In this document: one piece after another, positions 4,212-62,364 of the stretch | Numbering within the stretch: position 1 is the stretch's first letter | Layout: every line of letters begins with the position of its first letter | NCBI GenBank assembly: GCA_045653225.1 | Contig: JAZOLP010000062.1 | Coordinates: 908 to 64,907 of the forward strand | Reading direction: 5' to 3' | From: Bacilli bacterium | Lineage (GTDB): Bacteria; Bacillota_I; Bacilli_A; ML615J-28; CAG-313 | Length of the DNA stretch: 64,000 nucleotides | The notes under the pieces: generated by a model | What the model was told of the DNA's origin: nothing | What the model saw: only the letters and a program-made list of their open reading frames with translations | The model's database searches: none | Made by a program: the position numbers and the translations under genes

Positions 4212-5522
4212 GTGGCAGCAGAAAAATTTAAAATGTATTGCGATAAGTGCGGCCGCCTCAAAAATAGTGACAAATATTATTCCACAAATAATTTAGAAAA
4301 ATATCCAAAAGGCAAGGTCACCGTATGTAAAGATTGTATGACTATGCACATTGATAATTTTCAGCCTGAAACATATGTGTGGATCATGAAAGAGGTAGAT
4401 GTACCTTACGTTCCAGATGTGTGGAATAAAGTATTGTTAAGTTATAAAGATCAGCCGGACAAGCTGGTGGGGCCTACTATTATGGGTAGATATATGTCTC
4501 AAATGAAATTGAGCCAATATAAAAATAAGCGCTGGGCAGATACACAAACACTGTCAGAAGAAAGAAAAGCTAGTGCCCGCAGATCACTAAAAGCGCAAGG
4601 TTATTCAGAAGAAGAAATTGAGGAAGAAGTTAAAAAAATGAATATTCCTGAGTCTGCGCCTCCACCAGAAGAGAAAGAAACTTACTCAAGTTTTATGGCG
4701 CGAGAGCCTGATGTAGATATGGCTTCTGAAGTCGCAGCTTTGCAGAATATGATCACAGAGATGCGCGAACAGGCTCAGAAAGATGCGGAAGCCCAGGCAG
4801 AGTTAGATAGGATTGCGGATTTGACTAAACCATCCCTAGACCCGCCAAATCTCGAAGCTCCTGGACAAGTCGCAGCAGACCCTTATGGGCCAAGTTATTT
4901 TGAAGATACTTTAACAGAAGATGATAGAAGAATGTTATCTTTGAAATGGGGCAGACAGTATACTCCAGAAGAATGGGTTAGACTTGAACAGCTTTATGTT
5001 GATATGTTTAACTCTTTTGATATTCAGAACGCGGGACACGTGGATACTTTAAAATTAATTTGTAAAACTTCGTTAAAAACACACCAGCTTTTGGATATGG
5101 GCGATGTAGAAGGTGCAAAGAAAACACAGGCCATGTATGATTCTTTAATGAAATCTGGTAAGTTTACTGCGCAACAAAATAAAGCAGAGTCTGGAGACGA
5201 TGTTGACTCTGTTGGTGAATTAGTTGCAATGTGCGAAAAACAAGGTTTTATTCCAAGATATTGCACTGATATCCCGCAAGACAAAGTAGATAAAACTTTA
5301 GCAGATTTAAAGCAATATACTAAAACACTTATTACAGAAGAACTTAATCTTGGAAATCTTATTGAAAATGCGATTAGACAAATGCAGAAGCAAGATGAAT
5401 TTGAACAGAAGCTTGAAGATGATGAAGATATATTAGTTCCTACTGTTGATGAGTTAGAAGATGAAGACTATGAAGATTTCTATGATTTCCTCGAAGGAGA
5501 AGAGGAGGATGAAGATGAATAA
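4212..5522 (+). CDS. hypothetical protein with an N-terminal zinc ribbon and a strongly acidic C-terminus
   Basis: CDKCG...CKDC at the N-terminus; EDDEDILVPTVDELEDEDYEDFYDFLEGEEEDEDE tail; its stop overlaps the TerL start (translational coupling). Confidence 0.5.
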   Translation: MAAEKFKMYCDKCGRLKNSDKYYSTNNLEKYPKGKVTVCKDCMTMHIDNFQPETYVWIMKEVDVPYVPDVWNKVLLSYKDQPDKLVGPTIMGRYMSQMKLSQYKNKRWADTQTLSEERKASARRSLKAQGYSEEEIEEEVKKMNIPESAPPPEEKETYSSFMAREPDVDMASEVAALQNMITEMREQAQKDAEAQAELDRIADLTKPSLDPPNLEAPGQVAADPYGPSYFEDTLTEDDRRMLSLKWGRQYTPEEWVRLEQLYVDMFNSFDIQNAGHVDTLKLICKTSLKTHQLLDMGDVEGAKKTQAMYDSLMKSGKFTAQQNKAESGDDVDSVGELVAMCEKQGFIPRYCTDIPQDKVDKTLADLKQYTKTLITEELNLGNLIENAIRQMQKQDEFEQKLEDDEDILVPTVDELEDEDYEDFYDFLEGEEEDEDE

Positions 5523-7240
5523 TGGCTCTCAGCGATATATTACAAATTTCAGATAGTAAAAAAATAGGTGTTTCAGAAGAAAGAATTAAACCTATATTAC
5601 CAGTCATAAGAGACTATGTATCCTTCTGGCGAGAATACCCAGATATATTCGTAGACCATATGAGTGGCGGCCAGTTCAATTTATTCTTCTATCAGCGTGT
5701 GTTTATGCGCGGAGCCATGCGTCATAAGTATGTCTTCGCGACATTCCCTCGTGCGTTCTCAAAAAGTTTTTTAAGTATTATGCTTTTGATGATTAGGTGT
5801 ATTCTTTACCCTCGTGCGGCATTGTTTGTTACTTCTGGTAATAAAGAGCAATCTGCTAGTATTATTGCGGAAAAGGTAAATGAAATTTGCTTAAAAATTC
5901 CTGCTTTTGATCGAGAAATAGATTATAGCAAAGGTCAAAAAGGTACTCAGTTTAGAAGAGATAAGGTGCGTATCGCATTCAAAAATGGTTCTTATTTTGA
6001 TAATATTGCGGCCCGTGAAAGCTCCAGAGGTCAGCGTCGTCATGGCGGACTTGTAGAAGAATGTGTTGGTGTAGATGGGGAAATCCTATCTTCGGTAATT
6101 ATTCCTACAATGAACGTTGCGCGTCCTTGTATGGATGGTGTTGCAGTACCCGAGGAGACATTGAATAAGTCGCAAATTTATATCACAACCGCGGGTTGGA
6201 AGGGAACATATAGCTACGATAAACTTATCTCGTTTTTGGTGTGTTCAGTCCCGAAGCCGGATAAATATTTTGTAATGGGTGGTACTTATAAGATACCTGT
6301 TATGGAAAAATTGCTTGATGCAAGTTTTATCCAAGATATTCAGAATGAAGGAACTTTTAATGAAGCAGCCTTTGAAAGAGAATATTGTTCTCGTTGGTCT
6401 GGAACCGCGGAAAAGTCTTTCTTTAATGGTGAGGCTTTTGATAAATGTAGACAATTAAAGCAGCCAGAGTATGAAGCTAGCGGGCGCTCAATGAAAGGTT
6501 CATATTATGTGTTTAGTGCGGATATTGGACGTAAATCTGACGCATCTGTTGTTACAATTTTTAAAGTAACTCCGCAACCAACGGGACCTTCTTTAAAGTC
6601 TGTTGTTAATATAAAAACCTGGTCAGACATTCATATTGAAGATCAAATATTAGAATTTAAACGACTATATTTCTTATACAAACCTCGTGCGTTTGTAATT
6701 GATGCCAATGGTATCGGTATTAACTATGTTGACCTTTTGGTTAAAAGTCAAATAGACCCAGAGACGGGAGATGAATTCCCAGGATTTGGCGTAATCAATG
6801 ATAAAGATGGGGAGTATAAAAAATTCCTGTCAAATAGTACAATACGAGATGTCTTATATCTTGTAAAGGCAAACGCGCAATTCAACACAGAGATGTATTC
6901 TAATTTACAAGTTCAAATTAATTCTGGTAAAGTTAAATTTTTAACAGATGAAAGAGTTGCGAAAGCTAAGTTGCTAAATACGCGCAAAGGTGAAGCAATG
7001 TCTCCAGAAGAGAGAGAAAAATATCTTAGACCATTCACATTAACCTCAATTCTTAAAGAAGAAATGATGAATCTAACAGAAGAAAATGAAGGTCAAAATA
7101 TTAGACTTGTAAAAATTAATAAAAGAATTAAAAAAGATAAAGTGTCCAGTCTAGGATATGGACTTTATTATATAAAAACTCAAGAAGAAACAAAGAAGAA
7201 AAAGAAATTCAATGTTCGTGATTATATTAGAATGAATTAA
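5522..7240 (+). CDS. terminase large subunit (putative)
   Basis: 572 aa; a deviant Walker-A-like stretch FPRAFSKSF; a C-terminal RNaseH-like nuclease signature VIDANGIGINYVD; position upstream of the portal. Confidence 0.6.
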   Translation: MALSDILQISDSKKIGVSEERIKPILPVIRDYVSFWREYPDIFVDHMSGGQFNLFFYQRVFMRGAMRHKYVFATFPRAFSKSFLSIMLLMIRCILYPRAALFVTSGNKEQSASIIAEKVNEICLKIPAFDREIDYSKGQKGTQFRRDKVRIAFKNGSYFDNIAARESSRGQRRHGGLVEECVGVDGEILSSVIIPTMNVARPCMDGVAVPEETLNKSQIYITTAGWKGTYSYDKLISFLVCSVPKPDKYFVMGGTYKIPVMEKLLDASFIQDIQNEGTFNEAAFEREYCSRWSGTAEKSFFNGEAFDKCRQLKQPEYEASGRSMKGSYYVFSADIGRKSDASVVTIFKVTPQPTGPSLKSVVNIKTWSDIHIEDQILEFKRLYFLYKPRAFVIDANGIGINYVDLLVKSQIDPETGDEFPGFGVINDKDGEYKKFLSNSTIRDVLYLVKANAQFNTEMYSNLQVQINSGKVKFLTDERVAKAKLLNTRKGEAMSPEEREKYLRPFTLTSILKEEMMNLTEENEGQNIRLVKINKRIKKDKVSSLGYGLYYIKTQEETKKKKKFNVRDYIRMN

Positions 7241-38592: not shown

Positions 38593-40788
38593 TTACAGCC
38601 CTCCATGAAATGTTCTGCTTAATATTTCTTGCTTTTGTTCTTTTGTTAGAGAATTAAACAGAACTGCATATCCACTAATTCTAATTGTTAAGTTTGGATA
38701 GCTTTCAGGGTGTTCAATAGCATCTTCTAATGTTTCTTTGTTAAACACATTTACATTAATATGATGTCCATTTTTTTCAAAATATCCATCTAAAATTGTA
38801 CACAAATTATTCACTTGTTCTTTTGTATTTTTACCAAGCACAGAAGGAATAATTGTAAACGTATTTGAAATACCGTCATCACAGAACTGATAAGGTATTT
38901 TCGCAACTGAATTTAAAGAGGCAAGAGCGCCATTTTCTTCTCTTCCGTGGAGTGGGTTCGCGCCAGGAGCAAATGGAGCATATGCCTTTCTACCATCTGG
39001 AGTTGCGCCAGTTTTCTTTCCGTACATAATATTAGATGTTATTGTAAGTATAGATAAAGTTGGTTTTGCGTTTCTATAAAGCCATTGTGCTTCTAAGAAA
39101 TACTTAAAATAAGTAGCAACTTGAAGCCCTAACGCATCTGATTCATCTATATCATTACCATATTTAGGAAAATCGCCTTCAATTTTAAAATCAATAGCAA
39201 TTCCTTCTTCATTTCTTATCGGTATTACTTTTGCGAATTTAATACTTGCTAAACTATCGGACATTACTGAATAGCCTGCAATACCAAAAGCCATTAATCT
39301 ATCTTCTAAATGAGTATCGTGTAGAGCCATTTGAATTGATTCATACGCATACTTATCGTGCATAAAATGAATTACATTATTTGCATCTGAATAAATTCTT
39401 GCCAATTCGCGCAATACATATAAATAATTTTCATAAACTTCTTTAAAATCAAGAGGAGATTTTGTTAATTTTGGAACACCTTTAATTACTAATTCTCCTG
39501 TTCTTTCGTCTTTACCCTCGTTAATTGCATATAATAGAGCCTTGGCTAAATTACATCTTGCACCGAAGAATTGCATTTGTTTACCAGTTTTCATCGCAGA
39601 AACGCAACAAGCAATAGAATAATCATTTCCATATTTTGGTCTCATTAAATCATCATTCTCATATTGAATTGCACAAGTCTTAATAGACATTTCTGCACAA
39701 TATTTTTTAAAGTTTTCAGGTAGCTTTTCGCTCCATAAAACAGTTAAATTTGGTTCTGGTGCCGCACCTAAATGCTCTAGCGCGTGTAAAAATCTAAAAG
39801 AAGTTTTTGTTACTAATGATTGTTCATCGTTAAGCATACCACCTATTGCTTCAGTTACCCAAGTAGGATCTCCTGCGAATAATTCATCATAAGCAGAAGT
39901 GCGCAAATGACGAATAAATCTTAATTTTATAATAAACTGATCTATTAACTCTTGAGCTTCTTGCTCGGATATAATATCATTTTTTAAATCATTCTCAATA
40001 TAAATATCAATAAAAGTTGATACTCTGCCGAGAGAGGTTGCCGCGCCATTACTTTCTTTTGCACCAGCAAGATAAGCAAAATAAATTGCTTGAATTGCGT
40101 CTCTCGCGTTTGTAGCTGGCTTGTTAATCATAATACCATATCTGGCCGCCATTGTTGTTAATTCGCGCAATGCTTTAATTTGCATAGATACTTCTTCTCT
40201 TAATTGTATATCACGCATATCTAAATTTGCAAAATCTTTTTGCTTTTGTTCGATTAAATAATCTGTGCCATAAAGTGCTACTCTGCGATAGTCTCCTATG
40301 ATGCGGCCGCGTCCATAGGCATCTGGTAAGCCAGTTATTAACCCATTGTGTCTAGCTTTAAGAACTTCTTCTGAATAAGCATCAAATACTCCTTCATTAT
40401 GAGTTTTTCTAAATTGGTGAAACAAATCTAATTCATAAGGAGTTGTTAAATCGTGTTCTCGCAAACATTGCTTAACCATTCTTATTCCACCGTATGGGTT
40501 AATGATTCTTTTAAGTGGGGTATCTGTTTGAAGCCCCACTATTACTTCATTATCTTTATCTATATAGCCAGGTTGAAAATTATCTATTCCAGAAAACGCT
40601 TCTGTTTCAATATCTAATACTCCACCTGCTTCTTGTTCTTGTCTTAATAAATCTTTACATTTATCCCATAATTTTTGAGTTTTTTCTGTTATTGGTTGAA
40701 GAAAACTACTGTCTCCTAAATATTCAGTATAATTATTCTCAATAAATTTATTTACATTAATAGACATTGATTTTCCTCCTTTTCTCAA
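38593..40788 (-). CDS. pflB: pyruvate formate-lyase (formate C-acetyltransferase, glycyl radical enzyme)
   Basis: 731 aa, near-collinear with E. coli PflB. Active-site IACCVS is present, followed by [24 protein letters not shown]. The C-terminal glycyl-radical motif is [40 protein letters not shown] is also present. Confidence 0.85.
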
Positions 40789-41753
40789 AATTTATGTTTT
40801 ACTCTTAATTCTGTTTCTTGAACTTTTCCTTTATTAAATGCAGTTGTATAATTTCCTGTCAAATAACCTGTTACTCTTCTTAACTGTTGAATGTGTTCAC
40901 TACCGCACACAGGGCAGTATTTATTAAACTCGTCTAAATATCCACAATCCAAGCAAGCGTCATTTGGGACATTGATCGCGAAATAAGGTATATCCTTGTC
41001 CATAGCATAATTTATAATTTGCTCAATTGCAGATAAGTTATTTTTAACACTACCATCTAACTCTACATAAGTAATACATCCCGCACTTGAATAACCAGTT
41101 AATTGAGATTCTATGTCAATTTTATCAAATGGTGACATTTCTTTCCAAACTGGAACATGCATCGAATTAGTAAAGAATGCTTTATCACTAACATTTTCGA
41201 TTACTCCATATTTATCTTTAAATTTTTGCATAGCAGTAAAACAAAGATTTTCTGCAGGAGTATAATATACACCAAAGTTAAGTTTATACTCTTCTTTGAA
41301 TGAAGCGCATTTATCTTTAAATAATTGTTCAATTCTTTTAGCCAATACCATACCCTCTTCAGTTGTATGGTCTGTACCAATTAAAATTTGAAGTGTTTCC
41401 GCAAGACCAAGTTGCCCAATCGCAAGAGTTCCGTGTTTGAGTGCGCTTCTAATTCCCTCTTCTGGCACATAACCAGCCATTAAATTATTTTCATACATAA
41501 ATTTGGCTGAGTCTGGACTTTGCGAACAAATATATTCAAATCTTTCTAATAAGATGTCTTTTGCGTCGTGAATTTTTCTATTTAAAAGATTTAAGAATAC
41601 TACTTCTAAATCTTCTTCTTGTCCTTCTTCCTCACACATTTCTTTAGCCATCATAGCCAATGTAGGAAGAATAATTGTTACAGGACATATATTACCTCTA
41701 CCATCTTTAAGCTGGCCAAAACCATTAATATCCCAGCCGTTTGCCGTTCTGCA
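40785..41753 (-). CDS. nrdD: anaerobic ribonucleoside-triphosphate reductase, exon 2 (C-terminal part, beginning CRTANGWD)
   Basis: C-terminal Zn ribbon CLDCG...CPVCG and glycyl-radical motif RRVTGYLTG. The conserved MGCR motif is reconstituted only when joined to exon 1. Confidence 0.75.
40828..40857. repeat. left copy of the 30-nt direct repeat. It lies inside the intact nrdD 3-prime end and encodes [11 protein letters not shown].
   Basis: See the paired repeat at 38519-38550. Confidence 0.7.
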
Positions 41754-42575
41754 CATGTTAATCCGATGTTACCATCGGCACTGACTATATCTTCTCCAAT
41801 TATTTGGAGTCTTCCGCTTCGAATGTGCGCCTATCTCACATTCTACTCCCTTACATTCATCAGGGATAGTCGATACACTTTATTCATTATAATATTCAAA
41901 AATCCAAGTATTTTTATATGGACTTTTTACTTGTCCATTGAGTCGAGTGGTAATAGAAGTTTTTCCATTTTGTATTCCGCAGGCTCTGGCGCAACCAATT
42001 ACTGTATCGAAAATATCAACTTCATTTGTAATTATATTGGTTCGTTTGACTTTTTGAGCCATCGGGTTTTTCCCACCCAATTTTGTTTGTCTAATTTTTT
42101 CTTTAATTTCATTCATTTCTTCATCTGTTTTAGAAAGATATGTATTTCCACCGCATTTATAAATAGCGCTAGTTTCATTATATCCCTCTTTAACAGCATT
42201 ATAAAATTGAATCCAATATTGCTCTTTGAAATTTAATTCTTCTTGATTTTCTGCTGTATCAATTTCTTCTATAACAAAATTTTCTTTGCCGTATTTTCTA
42301 ATTGCTCGAGCAAAATGCGTATCAAGAATGTTATTTAATGCGTCATTTATATGACGATGAAATCTTGCTTCGATAGGCCTAATACTTTGACCTATATATA
42401 CTTTGTTGTTTTGAATATTTGTAATTTTATATATCCACATAGAAACTCCTTTCTATTGAATATTATAATGAATCTTAGCACGGTCTCATCCACGTGGGAC
42501 CTAACCGTTAGCCCGCAATCGCGGACACCCTCGGGCGAGGTTCAAAAGATTTTACATGGGCTGTAGTTTTCACTT
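41754..42575 (-). mobile_element. group I intron (822 nt) interrupting nrdD, carrying a GIY-YIG homing endonuclease ORF
   Basis: In-frame junction ...ATG GGT | intron | TGC AGA... The exon ends in U and the intron ends in G. GC-rich structured segments flank the ORF at both ends, with GACTA in the 3-prime part. There is an internal RBS for the endonuclease. The split falls exactly in the conserved NrdD MG|CR motif. Confidence 0.7.
41880..42440 (-). CDS. GIY-YIG homing endonuclease encoded within the intron
   Basis: WIYKITNIQNNKVYIGQS GIY-YIG motif; downstream R, H and N catalytic residues; basic C-terminal DNA-binding region. Confidence 0.75.
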   Translation of the reverse strand: MWIYKITNIQNNKVYIGQSIRPIEARFHRHINDALNNILDTHFARAIRKYGKENFVIEEIDTAENQEELNFKEQYWIQFYNAVKEGYNETSAIYKCGGNTYLSKTDEEMNEIKEKIRQTKLGGKNPMAQKVKRTNIITNEVDIFDTVIGCARACGIQNGKTSITTRLNGQVKSPYKNTWIFEYYNE

Positions 42576-43829
42576 ACCCATTGTGCTCATATATGTTCTA
42601 GGGTCGTCAGGATCGTATCCAGCATTGCCGCTCCAATCTACATTACAGTAATTTGGATATAATCTTGTTGCAGTTGATTTAAGAGCCAACTGATATAAAT
42701 CATAATTAGGGGTACCTGGTTTATCATTTACACCTTTCATATATTGAAAAATTTGACAAGGGAAAACAGATGTTCTATGCGATTTTCCAAGTCCTTCAAT
42801 TGTTCCTTCTAAAATAGCTTTTGTAACCATTCTTCCCTCAACTAGAGTACAAGTACCATAGTTAATTGAACTAAATGGAAGCTGATTTCCGCTACGAGAT
42901 TGTAAAGTATTAAGATTATGAAGCATACCTTCAACTGCTTGTTTTAATTCTCTTTCTGTCATATCCATAGCATATATATAAACATTTGGAAAATAATTTA
43001 TATAACATTCGTTAAATATAGAAGTTTCATTTGTTACGTAGTTAAATACTACTGCATCATACGGATTTTCAAACATTTCAATATATTTTAAACCATCCAC
43101 ATAGTGCTTATAGAAACTTTTTCTTACATACGGAACCATACTCCAATCCAAGTGAGAACAACTTACACCGCCAAACTGTTGTAAACTTTGTATCTGAAAA
43201 ATAACTGCCAATAGTTGAAATGCTGTATTGATTGAACTTGCGGGGCGCACATCTGTTTGTCTCGTATTGAAACCATTCGCAAGTAAATGATCAATAGGAA
43301 CAGTTAAACAGTTATGATTACCAAGTACATATTGATCTAGGTCGTGAGTATAAATTTTATTATTAAGATGATTATCTTTTGTTTTTTTGCTTACTAAATA
43401 ATTTAAAGCGTAGTCTTTATTCATTACGCTCGCGGCTTCGCCATTTCTTCCACCGAAAGATTTTTCATCTACATTTGCATTTTGATTTTTAATATCTTGT
43501 GCTTGAAGCTTTTTACCTATCTCTTTATGTAACGCGCTTTTCGCATTACGAGCAATACTTCTTTTTTCTCTATATATAATATAAGCTTTTGCAACATCTA
43601 ATCTTTCACTTTGCATAAGCTTTTGCTCAACTAAATCTTGTATTTTTTCTATATCCCAATCACTTACATAGTGAGTATATTCTTCATAGATTTCTTCTGC
43701 GATATCTTGAGCAATTTCCTCTGAATAAATTTGTCCATCTACTTCTTCAAAAGCTTTATTTATTGCTTTTATAATATTGTCTTTACAAAACTCTACAAGA
43801 GTTCCGTCTCTTTTAATTATCATCTTCAT
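42576..43829 (-). CDS. nrdD: anaerobic ribonucleoside-triphosphate reductase, exon 1 (N-terminal part with an ATP-cone). The ORF track runs on to a stop at 42570 inside the intron.
   Basis: IIKRDGTLVEFCKDNIIKAI ATP-cone; the exon ends ...YMSTMG. Confidence 0.75.
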
Positions 43830-58531: not shown

Positions 58532-58885
58532 TTACTCTCCTTTATAATTTTTTCCTTTTTCTGTTAAGCTATATATAATTGGATCTGTGCTTATTTTTTC
58601 AACATATTCATCAGATACTAATTTTCTCATCGCGCCAGATACTGTTCTTGCTGAAACTCCAAGACCATCAGCGATATCTTTTGCTTTTAATAAGGGTTTA
58701 GTATCTTCTTGCTGCATATACTGTAAAATAAGCTTACCATTATCAGTTAAACCTGTTGTTTCTTTTTCTTTTGTTTCTTTTAATACTTCCAAAAATTGTG
58801 CTACATTTTCTGGAACAGTTGTTGGTTCTTTACAATTTTTTACCAAATAATCAAAATAATTGAAAAATTCTTCTTTAATAGTCAT
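58532..58885 (-). CDS. winged-helix/MarR-like HTH transcriptional regulator
   Basis: AKDIADGLGVSARTVSGAMRKL helix-turn-helix. Confidence 0.5.
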   Translation of the reverse strand: MTIKEEFFNYFDYLVKNCKEPTTVPENVAQFLEVLKETKEKETTGLTDNGKLILQYMQQEDTKPLLKAKDIADGLGVSARTVSGAMRKLVSDEYVEKISTDPIIYSLTEKGKNYKGE

Positions 58886-58943
58886 TTATTTATACATTCC
58901 TTTCATCTTTATATAAATATAATACTATAAATTTTAAATATAA

Positions 58944-59603
58944 TCAACTGTTTTTACAAGAATGCTTTTCAGGACAATATCCAAGATATTTACATTTTGG
59001 AACAAAGTATTTTGTTACGCAATATTGCCACTGAGCAGAATAATCTGATAAAGCTGTTTCTATATCATCAAACAAGTCTCTAAATTCCCAAAAGGCACGT
59101 TGACATTTTCTTTGATGAGACATATCTATTAAATTGCGGAGATTGGTTCTAATAACTACTTTTGTAGTCATACCAAGAGGAAGTAACATTGAAGCATCCT
59201 CTTTGGTAAATCCAATAGCCTCTAAATTTTTAACAGCTTCTGAAATATAGCTCATGCATCTGTCATAAATTTCTAAAGCTGCTTGATTTTCATAGAGTTT
59301 TGGCGGTGTCACATACTCAAAATTTCCATACTCAATATATCTTGTGCTGGCTTGTAATCGAGTTGGAGAACCACCAATGTGAGTATATAGCTCACGAATT
59401 ACTTTTGCACTATATCCTTCTAATATGATATATACTTGCGGATATTCAGATACTCTACCGTGTTGAGATTCTAAACAATCTAATCCACGCAAATAATTTT
59501 TTTCACTATCAGAAGTATCTGCACCCCAGCAAGTACCAGCCATTTCACCCATAAGAGTAATTGGGTTAATAGTGGTCGCGGGATGTACTGTTATTTTACC
59601 CAT
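58944..59603 (-). CDS. thyX: flavin-dependent thymidylate synthase ThyX-like
   Basis: 219 aa; a ...SPTRLQASTRY segment resembling the ThyX S-x-RY motif; nucleotide-metabolism context. Confidence 0.45.
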   Translation of the reverse strand: MGKITVHPATTINPITLMGEMAGTCWGADTSDSEKNYLRGLDCLESQHGRVSEYPQVYIILEGYSAKVIRELYTHIGGSPTRLQASTRYIEYGNFEYVTPPKLYENQAALEIYDRCMSYISEAVKNLEAIGFTKEDASMLLPLGMTTKVVIRTNLRNLIDMSHQRKCQRAFWEFRDLFDDIETALSDYSAQWQYCVTKYFVPKCKYLGYCPEKHSCKNS

Positions 59604-60628
59604 TATCCGTTTCCTCCTGTAACATTATATCCCCAATTTTTTGAATCAAAGTATTCAATCCAAAATTTTTCTCTTTCGTTTAAATCTGCTCTCGCGCATT
59701 CTTCAATTAATTCAAAAGAGAAATTCTCTACACCTTTTTCCCAAAGGGCGGGATATAACTTATTATTAAGCGGGGTCTCTGCGTGTAATCCTCTCTTAAT
59801 GTGTTGTTTCCATCTATCTGCGAGAGAAACGCATTGCCCAATATAAATTCTTCCTGATTCGATGTCTTGAATTTTATAAATACCAGTAGTAGGTTTAGAA
59901 ATTTGTCTACCTATTAAATCATTAGTAGGCTTTTCAAAATAAGTTTTCCAAATAAGCTTATTTAAAACCTCTTTATTGTTTAACTTTTCTGATAATTCGC
60001 GCAACTTATTAATATCTTCTAAATCTTGTTGCGGAATTTGTAGCCTAAAAAATTCTGACTGGGTTCTTTTCTTTTCTTCGCGTTTCAAATCTTCTTGAGC
60101 AGCGGCCGCGAGTGTCTGATATTTATTTAACTCAATTTTTGCTTCGTTTATTTTATTTATTTCAAGATTCATATTGTTAGATAAAGCAATTGCAGCATCT
60201 TTCATTATACTTGAATATTCATTATAAAAATCATTTTTTGCATTTTCTAAATCATTTTTCAATTCTTCTTTTGCTTTTTCTATTTTTTCTTTTTCAAAAC
60301 TTATCTTGTCTTGATAGTTTTTATCTGCTTGTTGACATAATTGAGTTAAATGAATTATTTTCTGATCTAATATTTCAGATTCTGTTTCTTTTTTATCACA
60401 AGTATTTTTAATGTTAATTAAATGTTGTTCAGCTTCTAAATTATAAGCATCAAGCTCAGCTAAACGAATTTCTTTATAAGAAATTTCTTTATTTAATTCA
60501 TTTATTGTGCTTTTTGTGATTTTTAATTTTGGTCTTAATATTAAATAGGTTCCACCTATTCCCAGACCAATTCCAAATATTAGTAATATTATTGTCATAG
60601 ATAAAAAAATAAGAGGTAGTAGAAGCAC
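59603..60628 (-). CDS. membrane-anchored coiled-coil protein with a C-terminal GIY-YIG nuclease domain
   Basis: N-terminal TM segment LLPLIFLSMTIILLIFGIGLGIGGTYLIL; about 200 aa of coiled coil; C-terminal GIYKIQDIESGRIYIGQ...R...H...E...N. Confidence 0.6.
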   Translation of the reverse strand: MLLLPLIFLSMTIILLIFGIGLGIGGTYLILRPKLKITKSTINELNKEISYKEIRLAELDAYNLEAEQHLINIKNTCDKKETESEILDQKIIHLTQLCQQADKNYQDKISFEKEKIEKAKEELKNDLENAKNDFYNEYSSIMKDAAIALSNNMNLEINKINEAKIELNKYQTLAAAAQEDLKREEKKRTQSEFFRLQIPQQDLEDINKLRELSEKLNNKEVLNKLIWKTYFEKPTNDLIGRQISKPTTGIYKIQDIESGRIYIGQCVSLADRWKQHIKRGLHAETPLNNKLYPALWEKGVENFSFELIEECARADLNEREKFWIEYFDSKNWGYNVTGGNG

Positions 60629-60643
60629 TACCTCTTAGTATTA

Positions 60644-60916
60644 TTATTCAGCGTCTTCTGAAGCGTTAGGGTCGATAGCTTTACCAGCATCTGTAAGTTT
60701 AAGGAACTTAACTTTCTTATGTGTACCATCTTCGAGTTCGATTTCAGCTTCTACTCTTTTGCCAAGTTCGTTCTTCTGAAGGTATGTGAATGTTCCGTCA
60801 ACCACTCTCTTGTCTGCAATACCGAGTTCAGCAGCAACATCTGCAGCTGTTACATTAGCATCGCCAATACCCTGTAAAAATGTAATAACTTTCTTTGAAT
60901 TTTCTGATAATTTCAT
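60644..60916 (-). CDS. small hypothetical protein, possibly DNA-binding
   Basis: ORF track; own promoter at 60983-61011. Confidence 0.4.
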   Translation of the reverse strand: MKLSENSKKVITFLQGIGDANVTAADVAAELGIADKRVVDGTFTYLQKNELGKRVEAEIELEDGTHKKVKFLKLTDAGKAIDPNASEDAE

Positions 60917-61260: not shown

Positions 61261-62364
61261 TCACTGAAATATTTCTGATATCTTGCAATCAGAGTCATTC
61301 TTATCCTCTCTAAAACGCTTAAAAGAAGCGTGGCGTAAAGTTTTTTCGTTATTATCCTTTTCCATGCAAGAGATTTCTATAACTTTATGGAGATATTTCT
61401 CTGGTTCTCTGGCAAATTTATCACACATCTCGTCAGTTAAGCCAGAATGCACCAATCCAATATCTTTAATTTCACCATTGTCCAAATATGCGCCTACCCT
61501 AATGCGGGTTATCCAATTATTATAATAACCTTTTGTAATAGGGCGGTACAAGTGCGGATTATGTTGATGGGCCTCAAAATAGTCGCCAATAGCTTTATAC
61601 CATTCGCCGTCTTCAGCTTTTTCTTCCCAATACGGCCAAGTTTCTAATTCTTTGCCCGTATAAACTCTTTCTGCTTGTTCATACCCAATAATAAAAGCAT
61701 CAACAGTATCAGACTTTTTAATTTTTATCATTGACCAAGCAGGTCTTTTATCTGGATAATATGGACAATCTCGTTTTTTAAGAACAACTCCCTCTTCTCC
61801 TGCGGATAATGCGTTATTTGCGAAGTCTAATAGATTATCTTCTTCAATATCTGCAAGTTGAATATAAGGATTTTCTCCTAAGTTGTATTCTTCAAATATT
61901 TCTTTCAATTTTAAATATCGCTCATAAGCACCTTTTTGCTGATAATCTTCATAATTATAATAAATTAAATCGTGAATATAATAATAGATTTTACCGTATT
62001 TTTCTTGGCGCTTTATAGCTTCTTCCGGCAAACATCCCATAATTTTAGTTACATCTTTTGATGTTTTGCCTGGAAAGTATATTTCTCCCAAAATAATTGT
62101 ATCAGATGGGAGTTTATTTAGTGTTTCCATAATATGAGGAACATTAGCACTTTTTTCAGTTAACATTCCTGTTGTTCTACTAATATTGCGGCTAAATAAA
62201 TATCCATTACCGCTAGGAGTTTTTTCAAACTGATAGAAGTAACCATCTTTTTTCAATTGACCAAAATACCCACCAGCCGCGAGAATAGAAGAAAGCTTTA
62301 GGGTGTTATTCCCTTCAGCTTTCCATATTTTCATAGCGGGTATCATCTTTGCATTGTTATACAT
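61261..62364 (-). CDS. ATP-dependent DNA ligase
   Basis: KxDG adenylation motif (QLKKDGYFYQF); EGVVLKK motif; size 367 aa. Confidence 0.7.
   Translation of the reverse strand: MYNNAKMIPAMKIWKAEGNNTLKLSSILAAGGYFGQLKKDGYFYQFEKTPSGNGYLFSRNISRTTGMLTEKSANVPHIMETLNKLPSDTIILGEIYFPGKTSKDVTKIMGCLPEEAIKRQEKYGKIYYYIHDLIYYNYEDYQQKGAYERYLKLKEIFEEYNLGENPYIQLADIEEDNLLDFANNALSAGEEGVVLKKRDCPYYPDKRPAWSMIKIKKSDTVDAFIIGYEQAERVYTGKELETWPYWEEKAEDGEWYKAIGDYFEAHQHNPHLYRPITKGYYNNWITRIRVGAYLDNGEIKDIGLVHSGLTDEMCDKFAREPEKYLHKVIEISCMEKDNNEKTLRHASFKRFREDKNDSDCKISEIFQ

Follow-up and report, generated by a model that had tools for sequence, protein, structure and literature searches.

SNIPE (PD-λ-1, from E. coli; published in 2026) is a bacterial nuclease that tells foreign from self DNA purely by location (PMC13190303). 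The protein has an N-terminal transmembrane (TM) segment with its N-terminus in the periplasm, an elongated helical body, a DUF4041 domain and a C-terminal nuclease of the GIY-YIG clan; it associates with the tape measure protein and cuts phage DNA during injection (PMC13190303). DUF4041 is required for defence and for binding of both DNA and the tape measure protein, and SNIPE without the TM segment is toxic in a manner dependent on the catalytic Glu (PMC13190303). Because deletion of the TM segment gives catalysis-dependent toxicity, tethering is the safety device of SNIPE.

Membrane-tethered nucleases of the GIY-YIG clan are already known as a kind, and the phage-encoded family described here is a differing form of that kind. 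The member analysed was encoded in a stretch of 64,000 nucleotides, referred to throughout as the window.

The I-TevI-type GIY-YIG homing endonucleases (TIGR01453; PDB 1LN0/1MK0) have the catalytic domain in common with the phage nuclease. Domains of this type possess little intrinsic specificity. The phage nuclease differs from these enzymes in that its catalytic domain comes last, the reverse of their order, and in that it has a membrane anchor and stalk but neither a linker nor a DNA-binding domain; its gene is neither intronic nor sporadic. T4 endonuclease II (EndoII, DenA; PDB 2WSH) is only a distant fold relative and a far more distant structural match than I-TevI, and no EndoII match was returned at E ≤ 0.01 when PDB was searched with phmmer. 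A soluble enzyme, EndoII tells host and phage DNA apart by base modification, whereas no base modification is evident for the phage that encodes the tethered nuclease. The p16.7 protein of phi29, a phage of a Firmicute host, is ~130 aa in length and consists of an N-terminal anchor, a coiled coil and a C-terminal DNA-interacting domain. The tethered nuclease resembles it in predicted layout, but p16.7 is small and binds DNA without cutting it.

Gene and translational start

Architecture, intactness of the catalytic residues, predicted topology, fixed synteny and core status, and the upstream hairpin were all determined with computational tools. The features of the nuclease gene were as follows.

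59603..60598, minus strand: membrane-tethered GIY-YIG nuclease gene, 331 aa from the ATG at 60598, TAA stop at 59605-59603
60599..60628, minus strand: ten-codon 5' extension to a GTG at 60628, the GTG lying within a 12-bp hairpin stem (60637..60610); no Shine-Dalgarno (SD) sequence before the GTG or the ATG
60610..60637, minus strand: terminator-like hairpin (12-bp stem, then T7) between orf90 and the nuclease ATG
60536..60595, minus strand: hydrophobic membrane anchor, residues 2-21 (TIILLIFGIGLGIGGTYLIL), KD19 = 2.36, with the basic flank RPKLKITK after it
60050..60526, minus strand: alpha-helical stalk with heptad character, residues ~25-183, from AF2, the absence of Pro and Gly and a local heptad signal
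59888..60049, minus strand: family-specific conserved two-helix module of ~50 residues, residues 184-237 (FRLQIPQQDLEDINKLRELSEKLNNKEVLNKLIWKTYFEKPTNDLIGR)
59618..59887, minus strand: I-TevI-type GIY-YIG catalytic domain, residues 238-327, with Y241, Y252, R262, H266, E310 and N325

The original prediction had described an ORF spanning 59603-60628. A minus-strand ORF of that extent (59603..60628) was present in the ORF list of the window, but the true start is probably the ATG at 60598, giving 331 aa, with the extension to GTG 60628 left untranslated. The ATG was taken as the likely start because homologues at 86–93% identity are 327–331 aa in length and begin there, and the GTG was disfavoured because it sits in the hairpin stem.

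Membrane anchor and stalk

The hydrophobic stretch of the anchor had no charge ahead of it and RPKLKITK behind it. An anchor was present in 49/52 family members, with no K/R on its N side and 2–5 K/R on its C side. Hydropathy and the positive-inside rule predicted a single-pass protein with the N-terminus out and the C-terminus in, and the extracellular part amounts to only 1–5 residues.

Residues 2-183 contained no Pro or Gly and were predicted by AF2 to form a single helix. A local-window test gave a heptad signal 3.8 sd over shuffles (z = 3.8), with register shifts near residues 89-123; a whole-region Fourier test at 3.5 residues was not significant for the protein of the window (z = −0.6), while the family median was z = 3.9. 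The result is a continuous helix with heptad character ~160 residues long. It is probably a coiled coil pairing two or more chains, and would measure an estimated ~20 nm when fully extended (~150 helical residues x ~0.15 nm). Across 199 family members the distance from anchor to module was kept (median 124 aa, 5–95% range 113–161), although the stalk sequence is not conserved. Mean pairwise identity among 52 homologues was 34% for the anchor, 25% for the stalk, 59% for the module and 71% for the GIY-YIG domain.

Helical module and catalytic domain

A profile of the module alone, searched against 1.84 billion representatives, matched 974 clusters at 50% identity, 532 of them at E ≤ 1e-10. The best 150 of the 974 matches were proteins of ~300–390 aa with the same architecture and the module in the same place, or fragments of such proteins.

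The C-terminal domain scored 30.3 bits against PF01541 (cut-off 22.6) and 66.4 bits against TIGR01453 (cut-off 56.05); the latter match covered the catalytic part alone (profile positions 3-89 of 215). In the phmmer alignment (331-aa numbering), Y241, Y252, R262, H266, E310 and N325 corresponded to Y6, Y17, R27, H31, E75 and N90 of I-TevI. The first five positions were invariant in 52 sequences; at the sixth, Asn was replaced by Ser in many relatives, which end in GYSIK. The catalytic motif was found in 194/199 full-length family members, and the domain has the three-stranded sheet and helices of the GIY-YIG fold. Judged by these residues, the nuclease is catalytically intact and apparently active. 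The protein stops 4–5 residues past the catalytic domain, and a domain search of this protein and five relatives found no NUMOD, zinc finger, HTH or other DNA-binding module.

The architecture originally proposed, an N-terminal anchor, a long helical stalk and a C-terminal GIY-YIG domain, was therefore correct and holds across a large family. The hydrophobic anchor was borne out by hydropathy and flanking charges, and the GIY-YIG assignment by two profiles above their curated thresholds and by the intact catalytic residues. The coiled coil, put at ~200 residues, proved to be a long helix with heptad character of the shorter length given above. The shorter start, the conserved helical module, the upstream terminator hairpin and the status as a core gene of a phage clade were not part of that prediction.

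Comparison with SNIPE

The SNIPE gene was recovered from E. coli 118UI via a primer sequence in the supplement of the SNIPE paper. It lies in a lambdoid prophage, on the strand opposite to its neighbours ren/P/O. In its product, DUF4041 (PF13250) occupied residues 198-252 (E = 1.2e-19) and T5orf172/MUG113 (PF10544, PF13455) residues 357-449.

Both proteins have a single N-terminal anchor, an N-out orientation and a cytoplasmic bulk (predicted for the phage protein, experimental for SNIPE); the body of each is elongated and helical, and the nuclease of each, C-terminal in position, belongs to the GIY-YIG clan. Conservation follows the same gradient in both, highest in the nuclease, lower in the middle and lowest in the N-terminal part, and both genes are carried by phage genomes. 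The nucleases belong to different families, T5orf172/MUG113 in SNIPE versus PF01541/TIGR01453 of the I-TevI type in the phage protein. The phage gene belongs to a fixed core and runs in the same direction as lytic replication genes, whereas the SNIPE gene runs opposite to its neighbours.

Pfam searches gave no DUF4041 (PF13250) match at E ≤ 1 in the phage protein or in five relatives. BLASTP of the phage protein against SNIPE gave a best E of 0.44, in coiled-coil sequence; hhalign of the family C-terminal profile against SNIPE gave a probability of 0.1%; and the PADLOC matches of the phage protein included no PD-Lambda-1 family. Membership in the SNIPE family was ruled out by the absent DUF4041, the different nuclease family and the negative BLASTP, hhalign and PADLOC results.

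The phage nuclease is thus an analogue of SNIPE, alike in design only (layout, predicted topology and conservation gradient). Since no homology was detectable outside the GIY-YIG superfamily, the shared design most likely arose by convergence. SNIPE is the closest characterised parallel and a published mechanistic precedent for superinfection exclusion, one of the roles raised in the original prediction.

Genomic context and distribution

The following neighbouring and comparison genes were located in the window.

60644..60916, minus strand: orf90, small HTH or winged-helix protein with an acidic tail, the constant immediate upstream neighbour of the nuclease gene
58944..59603, minus strand: thyX (PF02511, E = 1.5e-29), its start overlapping the nuclease stop by one base; a variable cargo slot
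41880..42440: classical GIY-YIG homing endonuclease that splits nrdD, its catalytic domain 33% identical to that of the tethered nuclease

The window belongs to a large genome of siphophage-like character, whose replication module is of the SPbeta type. The window encodes a DNA polymerase with 39% identity to YorL, together with a Sak4/AAA_24 protein, DnaB and a RecJ-like exonuclease (YorK homologue); YorF and YorH are the Pfam names of homologous genes in two related loci. In relatives at 34–58% identity the gene order was constant: gyrase, ligase, a short ORF, orf90, the hairpin, the nuclease gene, the variable slot, a yorE-like wHTH gene, YorF, AAA_24, YorH and DnaB. Loci were fetched through DnaB alone, avoiding circularity (80 loci, 46 with enough upstream DNA); a full-length nuclease gene accompanied by orf90 occupied the same position in 46/46. 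The nuclease gene was also present in loci found through AAA_24.

Among 185,579 species genomes, 11 family loci were found, all on MAG contigs, several of which, at 120–176 kb, are as long as an entire phage genome, and the family is therefore carried essentially by phages. In a clade of large gut siphophages whose replication genes are SPbeta-like, the nuclease gene is fixed as part of the core. Family records carried no functional name (hypothetical or GIY-YIG only), and there was no family model for the non-nuclease parts. Literature searches returned no paper on this family, and the phAss-1 paper makes no mention of GIY-YIG.

The small protein orf90 adjoined the nuclease gene in every locus long enough to show it. 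It had no match in Pfam or PHROGs, weak HTH matches in PDB, and an hhalign probability of 89% against the yorE-like wHTH protein encoded at 58532..58885.

Downstream, the ATG of thyX overlaps the nuclease stop by one base, with an SD sequence (AGGAGGAA) within the 3' end of the nuclease gene. The coupling to thyX noted in the original prediction is real in this respect, but it is lineage-specific and the adjacency incidental, as the content of the slot differs among relatives. Its three mutually exclusive occupants were ThyX (6 loci), ThyA, usually with DHFR (15 loci), and an uncharacterised protein of ~300 aa (42 loci).

Classical GIY-YIG homing endonucleases occurred sporadically in the same phage genomes. 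The one in the window served as comparison. The contrast first drawn with such enzymes, namely the C-terminal catalytic domain and the absence of a DNA-binding module, is valid. No Rfam family, group I introns included, was found in positions 40000-64000 of the window. The fixed synteny of the nuclease gene, set beside the sporadic classical enzymes, indicates a domesticated, fixed derivative rather than a mobile element. The most likely ancestors of its nuclease domain are the GIY-YIG homing endonucleases abundant in these phages, the DNA-binding half having been lost.

The same relationship could point to a free-standing homing endonuclease that is still selfish and directed at the adjoining thymidylate-synthase region in related phages. 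Intron-type GIY-YIG endonucleases are the nearest relatives of the catalytic domain, such elements abound in these phages, and the slot directly downstream is the most variable part of the region. This explanation is very improbable, being largely refuted, and nearly excluded, by the distribution: the gene stood at one position in all 46 loci and none was without it. NUMOD, zinc-finger and HTH modules are also absent, the catalytic domain is C-terminal, and a family-wide anchor with a stalk of ~160 residues has no place in a homing endonuclease.

The gene stood within the replication module in 46/46 loci, with ligase/gyrase on one side and the yorE-yorL homologues on the other; a place so fixed would suit membrane-associated processing of the phage's own DNA, in which the protein would take part in replication, in recombination or in the processing of genome ends, at a replication site bound to the membrane. 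The protein would then resemble p16.7 of phi29 in architecture but bear a nicking or cleaving head. The constant pairing with the small HTH protein orf90 agrees with such a role, as does the stalk, which keeps its length at only 25% identity and so looks like a spacer of defined geometry. Against this, SPbeta has the yorE-yorL module and lacks the nuclease gene, so the module works without it. I-TevI-type domains are little specific and a DNA-recognition domain is absent, and the terminator and missing SD separate expression of the nuclease from that of orf90. Processing of the phage's own DNA was accordingly rated as quite unlikely.

Expression signals

A GC-rich hairpin equivalent to that at 60610..60637, usually with a T-run, was found in 37/38 distinct intergenic regions of related loci; the stem sequences differed, which argues for selection on structure. 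No SD sequence preceded the nuclease gene, whereas 34/52 ORFs of the window have one.

The phage phAss-1 is partly recoded: TAG recoding affects 28% of its ORFs, among them the terminase, portal and tape measure genes (PMC10607447). The phAss-1 homologue of the nuclease gene contained 8 in-frame TAG codons, compared with 0 in the 2,369 codons of eight neighbours, and two suppressor tRNA genes lay ~400 nt downstream of it. GenBank splits this homologue into two fragments, each annotated as hypothetical. TAG density in the homologue of a fully recoded relative (L002) was not distinctive and gave no basis for an inference on timing. The hairpin with the missing SD, and the TAG recoding in phAss-1, may be restraints on how much of a hazardous protein is made, or on when; in phAss-1 the recoding suggests late rather than early expression.

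Restraint of this kind bears on the possibility that the enzyme breaks down the host chromosome and feeds nucleotide salvage. Like EndoII (DenA), the GIY-YIG enzyme of T4, it would open the attack on host DNA with endonucleolytic cuts, and exonucleases such as the RecJ-like YorK homologue would then yield dNMPs for the nucleotide enzymes of the phage. Core status in a replication and nucleotide module suits this and processing of the phage's own DNA as well as it suits exclusion. However, very low or delayed expression would be odd for an enzyme of bulk degradation, and membrane tethering would hinder it in reaching the nucleoid. Nor is there any evident means of sparing the phage's own DNA: ThyX, or ThyA with DHFR, implies ordinary thymine, and no base-modification genes were found among the ORFs scanned. 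A salvage nuclease was therefore considered rather unlikely.

Proposed function

The oligomerization, substrate and biological role set out below were inferred. The reading tentatively favoured, at somewhat less than an even chance and by analogy with SNIPE, is that the nuclease, confined in space, cleaves DNA as it reaches the membrane and so brings about superinfection exclusion. A very short N-terminus would lie outside the cell, and the stalk, module and nuclease head would project into the cytoplasm. The nuclease would be sequence-nonspecific, and its safety would come from the tether together with very low or delayed expression, which would hold a weakly specific enzyme off resident DNA. 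Its substrate would be DNA at the membrane, i.e. the genomes of superinfecting phages during injection, with the spatial self/non-self logic of bacterial SNIPE. The conserved module may serve as the contact to DNA or to the entry apparatus, and pairing of the stalks could bring single-site GIY-YIG heads together, giving two active sites for double-strand cleavage.

Restrained expression (the hairpin, the missing SD and the phAss-1 TAG codons) is as expected for a dangerous nuclease and was counted in favour of exclusion, as were the architecture with its intact active site, the fixed non-mobile position, the parallels with SNIPE and the near-confinement of the family to phages. Several points count against it. 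The DUF4041 that SNIPE requires is absent, neither a partner nor a sensor can be made out, and no more than 1–5 residues lie outside the cell. The module is highly conserved and not diversifying, unlike the usual recognition surface in an arms race. Strict core status in a replication and nucleotide module fits housekeeping phage DNA metabolism at least as well. An extended stalk of ~20 nm would put the nuclease well off the membrane surface. The TAG codons of phAss-1 hint at late expression, whereas classical exclusion proteins, e.g. T4 Imm and Sp, are expressed early.

A further interpretation, regarded as doubtful, is that a tethered nuclease on a stalk of fixed length arose independently of SNIPE from a homing-endonuclease domain and is indispensable to the phage's own programme rather than an accessory defence. 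Host or competitor DNA, for example, might be destroyed from the membrane at a set distance and time. Translational restraint would then be unusually strict, exerted through terminator read-through, the lack of an SD, or stop-codon recoding.

Significance

The protein shows the SNIPE design assembled from other parts: DUF4041 is missing, the middle module is unrelated, and the catalytic domain is of the I-TevI type. With at least 532 clusters at 50% identity, the family belongs to the fixed core of a large clade of uncultured gut phages, and the layered restraint on expression of the tethered nuclease is noteworthy in its own right. Should the enzyme act on entering DNA, phages would encode a counterpart of a bacterial defence, probably a convergent one, that is likely to help decide how phages compete with one another in the gut. 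Should it act on host or phage DNA instead, it would represent a new way to control a dangerous nuclease. Either way, a homing-endonuclease domain has been recruited to a fixed cellular location. If the independent origin set out above is true, spatial self/non-self discrimination by tethered nucleases would be a recurrent, convergent solution in viruses and cells.

Region upstream of the nuclease gene

The gene for the membrane-tethered GIY-YIG nuclease was preceded immediately by orf90 in all 46 loci that were retrieved via DnaB with enough upstream DNA, and a terminator-like hairpin was located directly 5' of the nuclease ATG. The features of the window considered here were as follows.

58532-58885, minus strand: yorE-like wHTH protein, three genes downstream of orf90
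60610-60637, minus strand: terminator-like hairpin
60644-60916, minus strand: orf90, a small protein of HTH or winged-helix type whose C-terminal tail is acidic

Equivalent hairpins were present in two syntenic relatives (L002, 7961-7988; L004, 7963-7990). Of 38 distinct intergenic regions, 37 retained the structure, although their stem sequences differed; it may be an attenuator, the 3' end of an RNA or a switch of translation. The 5' arm contained an SD-like run, reading AAGAGG in the window, AAGGGG in L002 and GAGGGG in L004, and was again G-rich in most other loci; the nuclease gene itself was without an SD. Judged by profile comparison (hhalign probability 89%), orf90 and the yorE-like protein appear to be paralogues.

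Exchangeable neighbors

The position directly downstream of the nuclease gene (window 58886-59602; L004 8958-9836; L093, a further related locus, from 860) was filled in 64 related loci by three mutually exclusive types of occupant: ThyX in 6 loci, ThyA, mostly paired with DHFR, in 15, and an uncharacterized protein of 290-332 aa (phrog_6721) in 42. Nothing in Pfam or the PDB matched the last of these; it may stand in for thymidylate synthase as a non-orthologous replacement, or it may modify pyrimidines.

The ligase gene was likewise exchanged, and the ATP- and NAD-dependent types found at a single syntenic position represent non-orthologous replacement in place. The ATP-dependent type was found in the window and in relatives L012, L014, L016, L017 and L020, whereas a LigA-type enzyme with BRCT occupied the position in L002 and L004.

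Window 61261-62364, minus strand: ligase, ATP-dependent
L002 4571-6565: ligase, NAD-dependent
L004 5391-7331: ligase, NAD-dependent

Interrupted genes and glycyl radical enzymes

Two pieces of nrdD were identified within window 40785-43829 on the minus strand, with a classical homing endonuclease gene between them and a gene for a pyruvate-formate-lyase-like enzyme adjoining.

38593-40788, minus strand: pyruvate-formate-lyase-like glycyl radical enzyme, 731 aa, full-length (PF02901, E = 1.6e-186)
40785-41756, minus strand: nrdD piece 2, NRDD profile positions 264-562 and glycyl-radical domain
41880-42440, minus strand: classical homing endonuclease, 186 aa, GIY-YIG domain N-terminal
42570-43829, minus strand: nrdD piece 1, ATP-cone and NRDD profile positions 2-260

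A search for a group I intron using Rfam at the gathering threshold gave no match; the two nrdD pieces may be parts of a gene interrupted by an intron or of a split gene. The pyruvate-formate-lyase-like enzyme is metabolic cargo unusual in a phage.

The DnaB and AAA_24 genes were broken up in several relatives (L009, 4417-7026; L018, 12636-14698; L020, 9594-11417; L021, 9594-12449), probably through the insertion of introns, inteins or endonuclease genes. Additional matches to GIY-YIG only were located near gyrase genes (e.g. L010, 2671-2937; L012, 2150-3696).

SNIPE gene of E. coli

The published SNIPE/PD-λ-1 gene of E. coli 118UI (locus L007, 1753-3255) lies on the strand opposite to its neighbors and adjoins ren, P and O. 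It is carried by a lambdoid prophage, so that in this strain the bacterial defense is itself encoded by a phage. Among 5,426 complete genomes of E. coli, 131 matched the SNIPE primer sequence.

TAG recoding

Recoded phages were found among the close relatives of the window's standard-code phage. In phAss-1 (OQ749652) the nuclease homologue (4611-5591) is annotated in GenBank as two hypothetical fragments because it contains 8 in-frame TAG (Gln) codons. In-frame TAG was absent from eight neighboring genes, and two tRNA-Sup(CTA) genes were located approximately 400 nt downstream of the homologue; the nuclease gene of this phage is selectively recoded. The nuclease gene of L002 contained 13 in-frame TAG codons, which likewise corresponded to Gln, and TAG was also carried by replication genes of L002, with 9 in DnaB. 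L012, L017 and L019 had in-frame stops, TAG or another stop codon, in DnaB. Recoding status appears to differ among the members of one syntenic clade.
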